59,914 nt of DNA from assembly GCA_043807505.1 (NCBI GenBank), contig JAZDFW010000038.1:1-59914 (forward strand), in the 5' to 3' direction. Each line of letters opens with the position of its first letter. Position 1 is the stretch's first letter. A program made the position numbers and the translations under genes. The notes beneath the pieces are model-generated. The model was not told the origin of the DNA, searched no databases, and saw nothing but the letters and a program-made list of their open reading frames with translations. This document shows, in pieces, positions 5,505 to 58,369 of this stretch. This DNA comes from Candidatus Omnitrophota bacterium. GTDB lineage: Bacteria > Omnitrophota > Gorgyraeia > Gygaellales > Profunditerraquicolaceae.

Positions 5505-5530
5505 AACAGTCCCCCTCCTAAAAAAAATTA

Positions 5531-5635
5531 TAACCCCAAATTTTGCCTGCCCGCCTATGGCGGGTGAAGCAAAATTTGCCCCGAAGGGGTTGCGCAACAA
5601 AATCCGACGAGGATTTTGTTGGTTTCGCAAGGTAA
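5531..5635 (+). repeat. TAA-bounded nested-hairpin element, left-type module (unit A1)
   Basis: TAA-CCCCAAATTTTGC[CCCGCCtatGGCGGG]GCAAAATTTG-CCCCgaaGGGG-...CAACAAAATCCgacgaGGATTTTGTTG...GCAAGG-TAA. Same module order as the copy after hisA (49184-49273, opposite strand). Confidence 0.7.
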
Positions 5636-5798
5636 TCCCGGGTTTTACACACACTATTTTGTGCAGTTGCAAAATTTGGGATACCCCGCAAAGCCGGCCA
5701 AATTCTCGTCGAATTTGACCGTGCGGCCCCTCGCTATACCTAAAGGTAGGCTACGCACTCGCTCGGGGCGGATTTTTCTAACGCAAAATCCGGGATAA
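5633..5798 (+). repeat. TAA-bounded nested-hairpin element, right-type module (unit A2), MITE-like
   Basis: TAA-TCCCGGGTTTTAC...GCAAAATCCGGGA-TAA with imperfect terminal inverted repeats. By hand alignment, 63/67 and 37/40 positions are identical to the inverted copy at 35181-35316. Carries a 23-nt internal insertion relative to that copy. Confidence 0.8.
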
Positions 5799-7046
5799 AT
5801 ATTTACGTGGATCCGTAATCTTACCGGTAATTGCGGAAGCCGTAACCGTTGCAGGCGATGCTAAATAAATAAATGCCTCTGGGTTTCCCATGCGGCCTTT
5901 AAAATTCCTATTAGCAGAAGAAATAACAATTTCCCCATCCGCGGGAACCCCGTTATGTGTACCGACGCATGGCCCGCAGCCAGGTGTCAAAACTACAGCG
6001 CCTGAGCTAACAAACACGCCAATAATCCCTAACTTTAAAGCTTCCTGAAGTATTTCCCGCGAACTCGGAGCAATGATAAACTTTACTCCCTTAGCAACTT
6101 TTCTGGATTTTAGAATCGATGCGGCTATTTTCAAATCATGGATTCTACCATTAGTACAGCTACCTAGGTAAGCCTCGTTGATTTTTATGTTTTTTAATTC
6201 CCCTACAGGCACAGCGCTATCTACATTATGCGGACAGCTTACTTGAGGAACTAACCTAGAAATATCATACTCCAAAATTTTTGAATATAAAGCATTTTTA
6301 TCGGCAATAACCGGATTTATTTTTCTCTTACTTTTGACGCGCGGGCTTAGCCAGAAAAGAGTTTTTTCATCTACCGGCATAAAACCTGCCTTTGCCCCCA
6401 TTTCAACCACCATATTAGATATAGTAAAACGCCCATCCATATCCAGCTTATCTATTACCGGGCCAGAAAACTCAATTGCCTTATAAGTGGCGCCGTCTGC
6501 GCCAATTTTAGTAATTATATAGAGGATAATATCTTTGGCAAAAATTCCTTTGGGGATTTTCCCTGTAATTATTATTTTAATCGTCTCAGGAACCTTTAAC
6601 CAGTTCGACCCTGTGGCAAGTGAGACCGCTAAGTCAGTCGAACCTACTCCCGTAGAAAAAGCGCCCAGCGCCCCATATGTGCAAGTATGCGAATCCGCGC
6701 CAAAAACCAGGTCCCCGGGAAGTATCCGGCCGGATTCAGGGATTACTTGATGGCAAACGCCGCAACCAATATCATAAAACATAGTCTGATATTGCGAGTA
6801 AAAATCGCGCATTTTTTTATGTACGCGCGAAACACCCTCACTAGGAGAAGGCGCGCTATGGTCTATGACCATACAAAATTTAGTTTTTAACTTTTTTGTA
6901 CCAAGCTCTTTTATTCTGTCGATAATAATTGAAGAGGTACCATCTTGCCCCAAGGCAAAATCAATTCTACACAAAGCAAAATCGCCGGCTTTTAAATCAC
7001 GGCCGGCATGTTTGCTTAATATTTTTTCAGCAATTGTCTTCCACAT
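5778..7046 (-). CDS. aconitase-family large subunit (LeuC/HacA type, 422 aa)
   Basis: GADSHTCTYGALGAF, LGSCTNGR and PGCGPCVG Fe-S/active-site motifs. The last 5 codons plus the TAG stop lie inside repeat unit A2. Confidence 0.8.
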   Translation of the reverse strand: MWKTIAEKILSKHAGRDLKAGDFALCRIDFALGQDGTSSIIIDRIKELGTKKLKTKFCMVIDHSAPSPSEGVSRVHKKMRDFYSQYQTMFYDIGCGVCHQVIPESGRILPGDLVFGADSHTCTYGALGAFSTGVGSTDLAVSLATGSNWLKVPETIKIIITGKIPKGIFAKDIILYIITKIGADGATYKAIEFSGPVIDKLDMDGRFTISNMVVEMGAKAGFMPVDEKTLFWLSPRVKSKRKINPVIADKNALYSKILEYDISRLVPQVSCPHNVDSAVPVGELKNIKINEAYLGSCTNGRIHDLKIAASILKSRKVAKGVKFIIAPSSREILQEALKLGIIGVFVSSGAVVLTPGCGPCVGTHNGVPADGEIVISSANRNFKGRMGNPEAFIYLASPATVTASAITGKITDPRKYLSRILR

Positions 7047-9824: not shown

Positions 9825-9889
9825 ATATTTTTCTCCGTTTTTGTTTTAGGTTAATTTCCTAGCGGCGAACATGCCGCATCAACCAGTAT

Positions 9890-12621: not shown

Positions 12622-13267
12622 TCTGTTTTTTTACAAGGCTAATAATCTCTTCTAAAACCTTGCTTGCTTCTCCGTCAGCCAGGACACGAACTAATTTTTG
12701 CTTTGAGGCGTAATATTCAATTACGGGCGCTGATTCCTTATTGTAAACCTCAAGCCGTTTTTTAATTGTCTCTTCTTTATCATCGTTTCTCTGATAAAGT
12801 TTGCCCGAGCAATTATCACAAACCATATTAACTTTAGGCGGCATGTTCACCGCGTGGAAATTAAGGCCGCATTTACTGCAAACTAGGCGGCCGGAAAGCC
12901 GCTGTATAATTACCAAAATATTTGTATCAAGATACACCGCCATGTCTATATTTGAATTTTTATCTTTAAGCATACTATCTAATGACTCTGCCTGTTTTAT
13001 GGTCCGGGGAAACCCATCTAAAATAAAACCTTTTTTTACATCAGGCTGGTCAAATCTGGCGGAGAGCATTTTAGTAACCAACTCATCCGGAACAAGCGTA
13101 CCTTTATTCATATAGCCTTGCGCTTCTTTGCCTAATTCAGTTCCAGAGGAAACATTCTGACGCAGCAAATCACCGGTAGAAATATGTGTCAGGCTTAATC
13201 TCTCTGCTAAAACCTTCGCCTGCGTGCCCTTTCCTGCCCCTGGCGGCCCCAATAAAATTATCTTCAT
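12602..13267 (-). CDS. adk: adenylate kinase (Zn-lid type)
   Basis: GPPGAGKGTQA P-loop, and lid cysteines CSKCG...CDNCSG. Confidence 0.95.
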   Translation of the reverse strand: MKIILLGPPGAGKGTQAKVLAERLSLTHISTGDLLRQNVSSGTELGKEAQGYMNKGTLVPDELVTKMLSARFDQPDVKKGFILDGFPRTIKQAESLDSMLKDKNSNIDMAVYLDTNILVIIQRLSGRLVCSKCGLNFHAVNMPPKVNMVCDNCSGKLYQRNDDKEETIKKRLEVYNKESAPVIEYYASKQKLVRVLADGEASKVLEEIISLVKKQNDSFKV

Positions 13268-18698: not shown

Positions 18699-18894
18699 TT
18701 GCTTTCACTTTCTTCTCTTTTAATAAAGTTTTAACGCGGGCGATATCTTTTTTTACTAAAGAGAACATATGCGGCTTATCAACCCTGCCGCTGTAACGGC
18801 CTTCATTAAGCTTAAATAACTCTTGGCCCAAGGCTTTTTCCTTTTGCATAAGCTCTTCCGTTGATAAATCTCTTAAATCTTTAATTTTAGTCAT
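18691..18894 (-). CDS. rpmC: 50S ribosomal protein L29
   Basis: 67 aa, LRDLSTEELMQKEKALGQELFKLN. Confidence 0.9.
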   Translation of the reverse strand: MTKIKDLRDLSTEELMQKEKALGQELFKLNEGRYSGRVDKPHMFSLVKKDIARVKTLLKEKKVKANG

Positions 18895-19310
18895 TATTTA
18901 TGGATCCTGGTGACAAATTTCGTCCTTAGCGGTAATTTATACGCTGCTAACCTAAAACAATACTTGGCATACTCCTCAGGCACACCACCTAATTCAAATA
19001 AAATCTTTCCTCTTTTTACCACGACAACCCAATGATCAAGATCGCCTTTTCCTTTACCCATACGCACTTCCGCCGGCTTCTTAGTTATAGATTTGTCAGT
19101 GAAAATCCTGATCCATAACTTTCCGCCTTTATGTAACTGACGCGCTAAGACAACGCGCACTGCTTCAATCTGATTATTCTTGATCCATCCGTTTTCTAAT
19201 GATTTGATCCCATACTCGCCAAAAGCTAAATCAGCGCCGGTAGTAGCTACACCCCGCCTATTTCCTTTTTGTAGTTTACGATACTTTACTCTTTTTGGCA
19301 TCATTACCAT
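18894..19310 (-). CDS. rplP: 50S ribosomal protein L16 (start could be any of M1/M3/M4)
   Basis: [12 protein letters not shown] uL16 N-terminus. Confidence 0.9.
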
Positions 19311-19322
19311 TGTAATTCCCCT

Positions 19323-19982
19323 TCAGGCCGCGCCTTTAAGCTTATTGATTTTTTCAACTAAAATATCGCCCTTATAAATCCAAACCTTAACACCAATCAA
19401 ACCGTAAGTAGTCAAACTTTCCGTAAAACCGTAATCTATGTCCGCGCGTAATGTATGCAGCGGAATTTTTCCCTGGCGGTATGTCTCAGTCCTGGACATT
19501 TCGGCGCCATTTAACCTGCCCGAACAAGAAACCTTAACTCCTTTTGCGCCGGAGTTTATCGATTGCTCCATCGCGCGTTTCACAGCCCTGCGAAAAGCAA
19601 CTCTTTTTTCTATCTGCAACGCGACATTCTGAGCAACAAGTTGCGCATCCAGGCCGGGATTTTTTACTTCTTCTATATCAATAGCAACTTCTGACTTAGT
19701 TATAGCAAATAGATCTTCACGTAATTTCTCGATATCCGCGCCATGACGGCCAATAATAATTCCCGGCCTGGCAGACAAGATCCGAACCTTTACGCGATCA
19801 GCAAGCCTTTCAATAATAATATTAGAAACAGCCGCGTGTTTAAATTTTAACCTTATATGCTTTCTAAGATTAAAATCTTGTTCGATAAACTTGGGGTAAT
19901 CTTTGTGGCCGGCAAACCAACGGCTATGCCAAGTTCTAATAAAACCAACTCTAAATAAAAACGGATTTACTTTATGGCCCAT
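19323..19982 (-). CDS. rpsC: 30S ribosomal protein S3
   Basis: MGHKVNPFLFRVGFIRTWHSRWF uS3 N-terminus. Confidence 0.95.
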   Translation of the reverse strand: MGHKVNPFLFRVGFIRTWHSRWFAGHKDYPKFIEQDFNLRKHIRLKFKHAAVSNIIIERLADRVKVRILSARPGIIIGRHGADIEKLREDLFAITKSEVAIDIEEVKNPGLDAQLVAQNVALQIEKRVAFRRAVKRAMEQSINSGAKGVKVSCSGRLNGAEMSRTETYRQGKIPLHTLRADIDYGFTESLTTYGLIGVKVWIYKGDILVEKINKLKGAA

Positions 19983-19985
19983 TAA

Positions 19986-20324
19986 TTACTCTCCTGATTT
20001 TATATCTAGTTCTATATTAATATGTGACGTTCTTTTCTTTATTGGCGCTGCCCGGCCAAATGCAGCTGCCTTAAATCTTTTCCAAGTAGGGCCGACATCG
20101 CAAATTATTCGCGATACATACAATTGATTTGGATTAAAACCCTTAATCTTCGCGTTAGCAATCGCCGAATTTAGAATCTTAATTAACGCTTCTTTAGGCC
20201 TTTTATTTAAATTGATAAGTATAGCACGTGCCTCTAACGCGCTTTTATTGCGAATTAAATCCATTACCTGCCTTATCTTTGTAGGCGAAATTCTTACATA
20301 TTTTCCGCTGGCTTTAACTATCAT
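19986..20324 (-). CDS. rplV: 50S ribosomal protein L22
   Basis: uL22 family by sequence and by position in the S10 operon. Confidence 0.9.
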   Translation of the reverse strand: MIVKASGKYVRISPTKIRQVMDLIRNKSALEARAILINLNKRPKEALIKILNSAIANAKIKGFNPNQLYVSRIICDVGPTWKRFKAAAFGRAAPIKKRTSHINIELDIKSGE

Positions 20325-34600: not shown

Positions 34601-35088
34601 TAAGGAATAATTCGGCCGTGAAATATTTTTTTTCCGGTAGCATGCTCTTCTTCTTCAAAAGATACACCCGGCGAACGCTGCAGCTGGCTGACTACTACGC
34701 GTTCATCACCGTTAATAATAAAGGTACCCGTATCGGTCATTAAGGGAATCTCGCCAAAATAGGCATCCTGCTCTTTAGTTTCCCGAGGTGAAGTCAATCT
34801 AAATTTTACCTTTAAAGGCGCGGCATAAGAAAGCGCGCGCCTCTTAGACTCAGCGATACCATATTTAGGTTTACCTAAAGAATAGCTAAGGAATTCTAAT
34901 TTTATTGACCGGTCATTATTTTCTAAGGGGAATATTTCTTCAAAAACTTCCTGCAAGCCCAATCGTTTTCTTTGGGAAACCGGAATGTCCATCTGAAGAA
35001 ATTCATGGTAAGATTCAAGCTGAACATCTAAAAAATGCGGCAAATCGTAAACTTCTTTTAACTTTGCGAAACTTTTACGTTTGGTCAT
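31684..35088 (-). CDS. rpoB: DNA-directed RNA polymerase subunit beta
   Basis: 1134 aa with GRHGNKGV and [10 protein letters not shown] motifs. Overlaps the rpoC start by 1 nt. Confidence 0.97.
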
Positions 35089-35180
35089 TCGTCACTTTCA
35101 CACCTCGTTGCACAAATTAACACAAATTTCACATTAATAATTAATGTAAATGCAGGTGCAATTCGTGAAAATCCTTCTGA

Positions 35181-35316
35181 TTATCCCGGATTTTTCGATA
35201 GAAAAATCCGCCTCGAGCGAAGCGAGAGGCCGCTCGGTCAAATTCGACGAGAATTTGACCGGCTTAGCGGGGTATCCCAAATTTTGCCTGTCGAAGGCGT
35301 GCAAAATTTGGGATTA
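35181..35316 (-). repeat. TAA-bounded nested-hairpin element (unit B), inverted copy of unit A2
   Basis: On the minus strand: TAA(=rplL stop)-TCCCAAATTTTGC-acgccttcgacag-GCAAAATTTGGGATACCCCGCTAAGCCGGTCAAATTCtcgtcGAATTTGACC...CGGATTTTTctatcgAAAAATCCGGGA-TAA. Terminal inverted repeats are TCCCAAATTTTGC / TCCCGGATTTTTCG. Confidence 0.8.
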
Positions 35317-35712
35317 TTTTAATTCGACAGTGGCACCCGCGGCTTCAAGCCTCTTTTTCATTTCTTCCGCTTCTTCTTTAGGCACGCCCTCTTTAATAGG
35401 CTTGGGTGCTGCGTCAACCAAATCTTTTGCTTCTTTTAATCCCAGGTTAGTAATAGTTCTGACTTCTTTGATTATGGCGATTTTATTGGCGCCAACGCTT
35501 ACAAGAACAACAGAGAATGCGGTTTTTTCTTCCGCAGCGGCCGCACCAGTTGCTGCTCCAGCTGCCGCGCCACCACCTACCGGCATCGCCATCATCGGCA
35601 TATTGGCCTTAACACCAAACTTCTCTTCCAAGGCTTTTACCAAATCAGAGAGCTCCAATACTGTCATACTCTCTATCGATTTAATCAATACATCCAATTT
35701 CTCACTAGCCAT
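35314..35712 (-). CDS. rplL: 50S ribosomal protein L7/L12 (start at MASEKLDVL)
   Basis: Ala-rich hinge and the C-terminal [10 protein letters not shown]...ATVELK. ATG 35712-35710 is preceded by GAAGGAGG. Confidence 0.93.
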
Positions 35713-49170: not shown

Positions 49171-49186
49171 TTATCCTATAGGATTA
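49171..49186. repeat. 16-bp perfect palindrome TTATCCTATAGGATTA (TAA-TCC-TATA-GGA-TAA on the minus strand), minimal right-type element ends
   Basis: Sits immediately after unit H, in the same relative position as unit A2 after A1. Retains only the TAATCC...GGATAA termini. Confidence 0.5.
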
Positions 49187-49273
49187 CCCCGGCATGCACG
49201 AAAAATCTCACCGAGATTTTTCGGCCGGCCCTACGGGCAAAAAATGCTTGCTTCGCAGGCATTTTTTGGGTTA
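49184..49273 (-). repeat. TAA-bounded nested-hairpin element, left-type module (unit H)
   Basis: Minus strand: TAA(=hisA stop)-CCCAAAAAATGCctgcgaagcaaGCATTTTTTG-CCCgtaGGG-ccggc-CGAAAAATCTCggtGAGATTTTTCG-tgcatgccgggg-TAA. Collinear with unit A1. Confidence 0.7.
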
Positions 49274-58319: not shown

Positions 58320-58369
58320 AAGAAAAGGGGACGTTTCTCTTTTCCAAAAGAGAAACGTCCCCTTTTCTT
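58320..58369. terminator. 24-bp perfect inverted repeat (bidirectional intrinsic-terminator-like hairpin) downstream of hicA
   Basis: AAGAAAAGGGGACGTTTCTCTTTT-cc-AAAAGAGAAACGTCCCCTTTTCTT. Flanked by GTTTTT on the + strand and UUACACUUUCU on the minus strand. Confidence 0.6.

Follow-up and report, generated by a model that had tools for sequence, protein, structure and literature searches.

In E. coli, the spacer between rplL and rpoB holds a partial terminator (attenuator) and an RNase III site. Among the small palindromic repeats of bacteria, the REP/BIME of gamma-proteobacteria are mosaics of short alternating palindromes located in short spacers just past stop codons, and are recognised by a GTAG-type head on a 20-40 nt palindrome and by an associated Y1 transposase. 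Liang, Rudd and Deutscher reportedly observed in 2015 that REP hairpins within ~15 nt of a stop codon lower the expression of the upstream gene via ribosome stalling. The palindromic elements derived from IS200/IS605 (PATE) are inserted 3' of a fixed tetra- or pentanucleotide, and insertion of both the IS200/IS605 and the REP type leaves the target unduplicated. Correia elements of Neisseria and the ERIC/IRU of enterobacteria and yersiniae are non-coding, ~100-300 nt long, with terminal inverted repeats and a short AT-rich target duplication; they occur in many intergenic copies, give stem-loop transcripts and are present or absent from strain to strain. Members of this type alter the expression of flanking genes via RNase III or RNase E sites, and the effect of ERIC at 3' ends depends on the element (PMC10969869). 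Finally, the pneumococcal BOX, RUP and SPRITE are built of modular sub-units, insert into one another and are frequently located at the 3' ends of genes, SPRITE having a terminator-like hairpin followed by a U-run (PMC3049150, PMC10969869).

Here we describe a hairpin repeat family of Candidatus Omnitrophota, of which one copy, element B, lies in the rplL-rpoB spacer of the window, i.e., the whole stretch of DNA analysed (59,914 nt, contig JAZDFW010000038.1 of assembly GCA_043807505.1). It is likely that element B is a non-autonomous DNA transposon, belonging to a MITE-like family of hairpin-mosaic repeats of this phylum. The literature on Omnitrophota repeats, on the assembly accessions and on stop-codon MITEs was searched, and no description of the hairpin family was found; apparently, it had not been described before. 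Read on the minus strand, the spacer holds four hairpins in an element of 128-130 nt, in the order rplL...AAA-TAA-TCCCAAATTTTGC-ACGCCTTCGACAG-GCAAAATTTGGGA...GAAAAATCCGGGA-TAA-TCAG, and the following features were located:

35185-35312, minus strand: element B, short form, 128 nt, CCC...GGG, from the sequence, the empty-site comparison and the family alignment
35184-35313, minus strand: element B in its alternative bounds, 130 nt, TCCC...GGGA, if the flanking T and A are counted as element
35313-35317, minus strand: left target copy (ATAAT), containing the rplL stop codon TAA; a single ATAAT in the empty site of L001
35180-35184, minus strand: right target copy (ATAAT), from the empty-site comparison and the 5-nt register analysis
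35275-35313, minus strand: hairpin H1, left terminal palindrome, TCCCAAATTTTGC, 13-nt loop, GCAAAATTTGGGA; -17.0 kcal/mol, z = -4.9
35230-35270, minus strand: closing stem CCGC/GCGG and hairpin H2, CGGTCAAATTC-TCGTC-GAATTTGACCG; -14.3 kcal/mol
35198-35229, minus strand: hairpin H3 (CCTC...GAGG) then GGATTTTTCTAT, terminator-like on the sense strand; -10.5 kcal/mol, z = -0.7
35187-35210, minus strand: hairpin H4, right terminal palindrome, CGGATTTTTC-TATC-GAAAAATCCG; -11.0 kcal/mol, z = -4.7
35089-35179, minus strand: native rplL-rpoB spacer, with one mismatch to L001; the weak AU-rich hairpin and the rpoB ribosome-binding site are kept

As the original prediction had it, the stop codon of rplL is the first TAA (35316-35314), and H1 begins at the base directly 3' of it. 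The element had been placed at 35181-35316, which was correct for the position but not for the bounds, the outer bases being duplicated target. The U-run after H3 doubles as the 5' arm of H4, and the rpoB ATG is at 35088. Folding of the minus-strand region gave the strong structure that was expected (z = -6.6), and the other strand also folded far better than shuffled sequences (z = -7.7). The element had also been considered the only structured RNA in the spacer; strongly structured it is, but the native 92-nt spacer has a weak AU-rich 10-bp hairpin of its own (-6.1 kcal/mol; z = -2.0 for the whole spacer). A search of the whole window against Rfam 15 at gathering scores returned only two tRNAs, the element falling in no Rfam family, and the best result of a permissive search of the spacer was InvR, located outside the element and scoring 23.5 bits where the gathering score is 60.

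Related contigs were found by exact lookup of the RplL protein and of a one-cluster RplL relative (P0002); they belong to Candidatus Omnitrophota and are 99.6-100 % identical to the window where measured. L001 (GCA_049293655.1) matches the window at 100 % and 99.9 % in the flanks and has a spacer of 92 nt, against 225 nt in the window; the exactly 133 extra nt are the element plus the second target copy; the empty site reads ...GAATTAAAATAATCAGAAGG, with one ATAAT only. Another 12 contigs, belonging to assemblies of NCBI, JGI and SRA, were reached with the P0002 RplL, and the spacer is 92 nt in each. Overall, element B is present in 1/14 related contigs (window included) and its site is empty in 13. 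The rplL locus of the nearest sequenced species (L034, RplL 79 % identical) is also without the element; neither it nor the rplL loci of other phyla yielded a family copy, a 22-mer of hairpin H2 had no matches in genome contigs and two probes had none in viral contigs.

These data bear on the possibility that the spacer holds a native, locus-specific attenuator or processing site of the E. coli kind, for which the original prediction had proposed a comparison of the spacer in related genomes. The intergenic position is the same as in E. coli, the structure is strong, and the terminator-like hairpin followed by a U-run could partly terminate transcription. On the other hand, element B is not conserved even among 99.9 %-identical strains, the 92-nt spacer of the 13 contigs and the locus of L034 do without it, and the sequence recurs, oppositely oriented, at an unrelated locus and, in metagenomes, in many contexts. 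The empty sites refute it as a native feature, and that the element natively stands in for an attenuator/RNase III site is extremely improbable; what occupies the spacer is a transposon insertion rather than an evolved feature of the operon.

Within the window, the family is represented by three loci and four units in 60 kb, the two loci other than rplL-rpoB being as follows:

5535-5794, plus strand: element A, long form, 260 nt; 101.9 and 90.4 bits with the covariance model; site empty in L114 and L115
5534-5668: left unit of element A, inverted and diverged, head to head with the right unit
5669-5795: right unit of element A, named A2 in the original prediction
5530-5534 (ATAAC) and 5795-5799 (ATAAA): target copies of element A
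49174-49270, minus strand: element C, a diverged 97-nt derivative of left-unit type; covariance model 41.9 bits, E = 1e-8

The near-identical inverted copies reported from a hand alignment (63/67 and 37/40 positions identical) were recovered by a repeat finder, which paired 5669-5735 with 35221-35287 (67 nt at 94 %) and 5759-5798 with 35181-35220 (40 nt at 93 %); the 23-nt insert at 5736-5758 occurs only in the 5.5-kb copy and not in element B. Probes of 21 and 32 nt matched only these two copies, with 0 matches expected in shuffles. Since the flanking genes are on the minus strand at both loci, the copies are oppositely oriented relative to transcription, as had been stated. Locus A is empty in L114 (GCA_021733565.1) and L115, both 99.6-99.8 % identical, where the leuC-pilT spacer is 20 nt long. 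From element A, the leuC-like ORF at 5778..7046 (large subunit of the aconitase family) gains the 5 C-terminal residues SRILR, LeuC being 422 aa in the window versus 417 aa, ending in ...KYL, in related strains (window 5778-5799). Element C directly follows the hisA stop codon (49273-49271), ahead of the next gene, is bordered by TAA at either end and is shared with L116 (SRR28011855), whose contig ends inside it. Repeats do, therefore, break related assemblies, which speaks for an assembly chimera or artefact in the contig of the window; however, the junctions are base-precise, the target is duplicated and the same architecture is found in independent assemblies from many samples, which makes an artefact hardly credible.

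Two other repeats were observed in the window. At 58320-58369, between genes, lies a perfect palindrome of 24 bp interrupted by 2 nt (AAGAAAAGGGGACGTTTCTCTTTT / AAAAGAGAAACGTCCCCTTTTCTT), which may act as a terminator in both directions. Two inverted arms of 32 nt (84 %), at 9851-9882 and 12833-12864 and thus 2.95 kb apart, each contain a small hairpin (GCGGC...GCCGC); the first arm lies in the rpoA-rpsD spacer, and the pair may be another small repeat family.

A further family member of 126 nt was found on the rplJ stop codon in five related assemblies/samples (L117/L127, L125, L126, L128 and L130; in L117 it lies at 1347-1477, with ATAAT as left and ATGAT as right target copy), the site being empty in the window and in L001 (ACATGATTTTAATCG). 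GCA_021733565.1 carries the rplJ copy and lacks A and B, and the window carries A and B and lacks the rplJ copy; these reciprocal sets, judged from the sequences, indicate recent and possibly ongoing transposition in one population.

The same population showed other insertions in this region. In L126 (GCA_049297655.1), at ~18822-20035, a 1.2-kb IS unrelated to the hairpin element occupies the rpsG-fusA spacer; it encodes a 364-aa HTH_38 protein (IS30-like), its ends are TTGTGAATTGTAA and it is flanked by a 13-bp duplication, TGGTAAACACAGG. Between rplA and rplJ, a 53-nt insert (L120 894-946, and also L119, L129 and L132) takes the place of the overlapping ATGA stop/start, with ATGA duplicated; read as its reverse complement, GGTTCGACTCCCTCTGGTCGCTCACCA, it resembles a tRNA 3' end (T arm, acceptor stem, CCA). 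Together with the rplL and rplJ copies, these make four insertion polymorphisms in the rplKAJL-rpoBC-rpsLG-fusA stretch of this population.

Outside this population, a 19-mer scan of the JGI metagenomes returned 32 loci, with real copies in 21 and ~16 independent insertion sites, from samples of groundwater, sediment, soil and wastewater type. The other 11 of the 32 matches were discarded, eight being in one conserved coding gene and three elsewhere. The copies range from 121 to 311 nt; the commonest form, of ~220-310 nt, consists of an inverted left unit and a right unit head to head, as at locus A, and the short forms (121-194 nt) retain the right unit together with the left terminal arm. 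With a covariance model of 20 units, all copies were recovered at 67-122 bits, element B scoring 121.8 bits (over 35184-35287), and element C came to light as an additional copy in the window. The copies consist of hairpins, and no ORF lies wholly within the element. Element B is an internal-deletion derivative of the long forms: the loop of its first hairpin is ACGCCTTCGACAG, which in the long forms L004 and L029 is the sequence at the junction. The precise empty sites at both copies, the target duplications and the ~20 further metagenomic copies demonstrate that the repeat is mobile and not locus-specific, as the original prediction had argued.

The modular composition of the copies was also evident. 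GC-rich mini-hairpins of ~20 nt (e.g., CTGCCCGC-NNNN-GCGGGCAG) occur in varied loops, in L002, L004, L007, L009, L022, L033 and at 5547-5568 of the window. Paired TCCC...GGGA-bounded hairpins occur at one fixed site in L005, L017, L022 and L024, and hairpins so bounded also occur in a differently built element, at L005 5522-5680. The elements are thus mosaics, and this recurrence suggests nested insertion or module exchange.

The termini of the family are CCC...GGG, with imperfect terminal inverted repeats, CCCAAATTTTGC on the left and GAAAAATCCGGG on the right; CCCAAATTTTGC and the reverse complement of the right end, CCCGGATTTTTC, agree at 9/12 positions, this arrangement is conserved in all copies, and each terminal repeat is part of a terminal palindrome. 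A comparison of the 5 nt preceding CCC with the 5 nt following GGG, over 18 independent loci, gave identity at 75/90 positions, versus 25-44/90 in shifted registers. The target duplication is perfect in 9/18 loci, with consensus ATWAT and core TWA, and in 15/18 the centre base, which varies (A, T or G), is the same on the left and on the right. Non-consensus targets are duplicated whole, as in L016 (CTAAT/CTAAT) and L029 (ATTAA/ATTAA), and at three loci (rplL, leuC-pilT and rplJ) the duplication is demonstrated against empty alleles. A 3-bp TAA/TTA duplication with TCCC...GGGA termini was considered and replaced, since in L016 and L029 the outer bases are also duplicated; that a 2-bp 'AT' register suits 15/18 loci is due only to ATWAT having AT at both ends. 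The duplicated AT-rich target is thus most likely to be read as a 5-bp ATWAT, and the repeat in the flanks is a true duplication of the kind produced by DDE transposases. In two recent insertions the target copies differ by one base (rplJ, ATAAT/ATGAT, with ATGAT in the empty site; locus A, ATAAC/ATAAA), of which donor-flank bases carried into heteroduplex are one possible cause.

The duplication of the target argues against insertion of the IS200/IS605 or REP type. An element of this sort, moved as single-stranded DNA by a Y1 (HUH) transposase that recognises the hairpins, with TWA as fixed target/cleavage motif, would explain the hairpins at both ends, the mosaic of hairpin modules, with TCCC...GGGA hairpins and GC mini-hairpins nested in loops, and the two flanks that are sometimes unequal; moreover, the strict Watson-Crick covariation described below would suit a DNA hairpin as substrate. 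However, the centre base of the flank varies and co-varies on the two sides, non-consensus flanks are duplicated, the empty sites hold one copy of the motif, a GTAG-type REP head is missing and no Y1 transposase gene was noticed in the loci viewed, so that this explanation is very unlikely. For the same reasons, two classes were rejected: REP/BIME with RAYT (no GTAG head, target duplicated) and PATE (the flank, ATAAT, ATTAT, CTAAT or ATTAA, varies and co-varies left/right).

On the contrary, the small size without coding capacity, the terminal inverted repeats, the target duplication and the multiple dispersed copies are those of a MITE. In the mechanism that we propose, a transposase supplied in trans, of the DDE type, would recognise the imperfect terminal inverted repeats CCCAAATTTTGC / GAAAAATCCGGG, insert the element into an AT-rich target (core TWA, ATWAT) and duplicate it. 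At rplL, a short, internally deleted copy would have landed on the ATAAT holding the stop codon, and the duplication would have restored the stop codon, leaving RplL unchanged and, after the native spacer, the rpoB start intact 90 nt downstream; in the sequence, RplL is indeed unchanged and native spacer and rpoB start are intact. No transposase genes are encoded in the window, and no autonomous IS or transposase with the termini of the family was found in the window or in ~1 Mb of retrieved loci. The IS30-like element of L126, the one IS observed in a relative, was rejected as parent, its ends being unrelated and its duplication 13 bp long. As a lead for the parent, the duplication length and the C-run ends of the family presumably fit IS1380, IS1634 and ISH3, which have C-starting ends and 4-6 bp duplications, or the IS5 group, with TNA duplications. 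IS5 and IS1634 elements have been reported in Omnitrophota genomes (preprint 10.64898/2026.06.07.730766). Three features do not sit easily with a MITE: the terminal repeats are short and imperfect (9/12), a one-base mismatch between target copies is not predicted by a simple staggered-cut duplication, and hairpins H2 and H3, which are internal, are strongly conserved by compensatory change, beyond the needs of a MITE relying on terminal repeats only.

Compared with the known systems, the family shares with Correia and ERIC/IRU the small size, the lack of coding capacity, the terminal inverted repeats, the short AT-rich target duplication, the many intergenic copies, the predicted stem-loops of the transcript and the presence or absence from strain to strain, but has no sequence similarity to them, belongs to a different host phylum, uses TWA/ATWAT and not TA as target, has a palindrome at each terminus, keeps its internal hairpins by compensatory change and has as its commonest form a head-to-head dimer of diverged units. 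The modular sub-units, their mutual insertion, the 3'-end location and the terminator-like hairpin with U-run recall BOX, RUP and SPRITE; sequences and host are unrelated, however, and BOX is without a clear target duplication, whereas that of the Omnitrophota family is seen in the empty sites. With REP/BIME it has in common the mosaics of short palindromes just past stop codons, but not the GTAG head, and composites of 128-311 nt move whole, duplicating the target.

In the alignment of 20 units, comprising four helices and 30 pairs, 97.7 % of the cells are paired and 18/30 pairs show compensatory change; none of 500 shuffles (0/500) reached the observed pairing/covariation, and sliding the partners by one column halved the pairing. 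Compensatory changes are found in 8/11 pairs of H2 and, across the family, in 3/5 pairs of the closing stem. Much of this covariation contrast is between left and right units, and the independent events are fewer than the cell counts; H2 and H3, however, also vary with compensation among right units alone. Only 1/600 cells holds a G-U pair, pairing being almost purely Watson-Crick. RNA structures selected on one strand usually tolerate G-U, and because strict Watson-Crick pairing lets both strands fold, the alignment suggests that the palindromes are maintained as DNA or else on both strands. At the DNA level, transposase binding and cruciform or single-strand intermediates would fit; the alternative that fits is folding when the element is transcribed either way. 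In the long forms, a central hairpin pairs fully only on the forward strand, via G-T/G-U pairs.

The position of the copies relative to genes was also considered. In seven independent loci the left target copy contains the stop codon of a co-oriented upstream gene, and in none (0) is the element reversed: rplL, hisA and rplJ in the population of the window, and genes for an ABC permease, a radical-SAM protein, holA and exbD, confirmed by Pfam, in metagenomic contigs. An upstream 127-aa ORF in L005 was left out of the count, having no Pfam support. Loci off stop codons split 5:6 between the two orientations (asymmetric centre base), and a hypergeometric estimate on this small sample gives p ~0.025 for the bias at stop codons. 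The stop-codon position itself is explained by an ATAAT with TAA being one of the few harmless insertion places in genomes with 20-90 nt spacers. The orientation bias suggests selection, though on a small sample.

It could thus be that the family, although mobile, has been domesticated as a 3'-end module, the stop-codon copies being selected as terminator, attenuator, 3' stabiliser or modulator of translation termination, with copy B tuning the ratio of L7/L12 to RNA polymerase. The seven co-oriented loci, with none reversed, are in line with this, as are the H3 with U-run carried by the forward strand of the right unit and the central hairpin of the long forms. By contrast, the presence of B in 1/14 and of the rplJ copy in 5/14 related contigs resembles transient, unfixed polymorphisms, a single G-U pair in 600 cells is unlike RNA-level selection on one strand, H3 alone is no stabler than shuffled sequence (z = -0.7) and the sample is small; domestication of this kind is therefore unlikely. 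In a broader form, the family would be more than a selfish MITE, namely a self-propagating 3'-end cassette, favoured in forward orientation on the stop codons of the ultra-compact Omnitrophota genomes and acting as a portable terminator, attenuator or translation-termination modulator; we put this forward tentatively, and consider it rather unlikely.

Keeping to a MITE-like insertion, its possible effects on rpoBC expression were evaluated. A consensus scan gave 3 overlapping terminator-like calls at 35227-35207, made of H3 and ATTTTTCTAT on the sense strand, with a weak stem (-10.5 kcal/mol, z = -0.7); the motif is also present at locus A, there on the antisense strand. In total, the insert adds to the spacer four hairpins of -10.5 to -17 kcal/mol, including, on the sense strand, H3 and then GGAUUUUUCUAU. 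By analogy with Correia and ERIC and their RNase III and RNase E effects (PMC10969869), the most likely consequence would be a mild partial termination or RNA processing at H3 with its U-run and at the stable hairpins. In addition, H1, abutting the stop codon, could possibly hinder the termination of rplL translation, and the effect described for REP near stop codons may serve as a lead for it. Element B may now perturb the operon as a secondary, incidental effect. Bacteria normally show reduced read-through past rplL into rpoB, which may be why the operon tolerates the insert, and the rarity of element B (1/14 contigs) argues for an allele that is neutral or mildly deleterious, and not an adaptation.

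A preprint of 2026 reports 'hypervariable' windows of read clipping over the ribosomal-protein operons in 150/223 Omnitrophota chromosomes, leaving the mechanism open (10.64898/2026.06.07.730766). Since four insertion polymorphisms occur in the ribosomal/RNA-polymerase stretch of one population, polymorphism of small elements and IS in these operons might contribute to the hypervariable soft-clip signal. Likewise, as the family breaks short-read assemblies, with one contig ending inside a copy, it may add to the population heterogeneity reported in Omnitrophota ribosomal operons.

The structured sequence between rplL and rpoB arrived by a recent transposon insertion and did not evolve as an attenuator; it is therefore unfit for inferring how Omnitrophota balance ribosomal proteins against RNA polymerase. 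In this uncultured phylum, a new repeat family has been mobile recently, and perhaps still is. It offers clean pairs of filled and empty alleles inside the most conserved operons of the genome, which are natural experiments on how a four-hairpin insert at a stop codon bears on translation termination and read-through.
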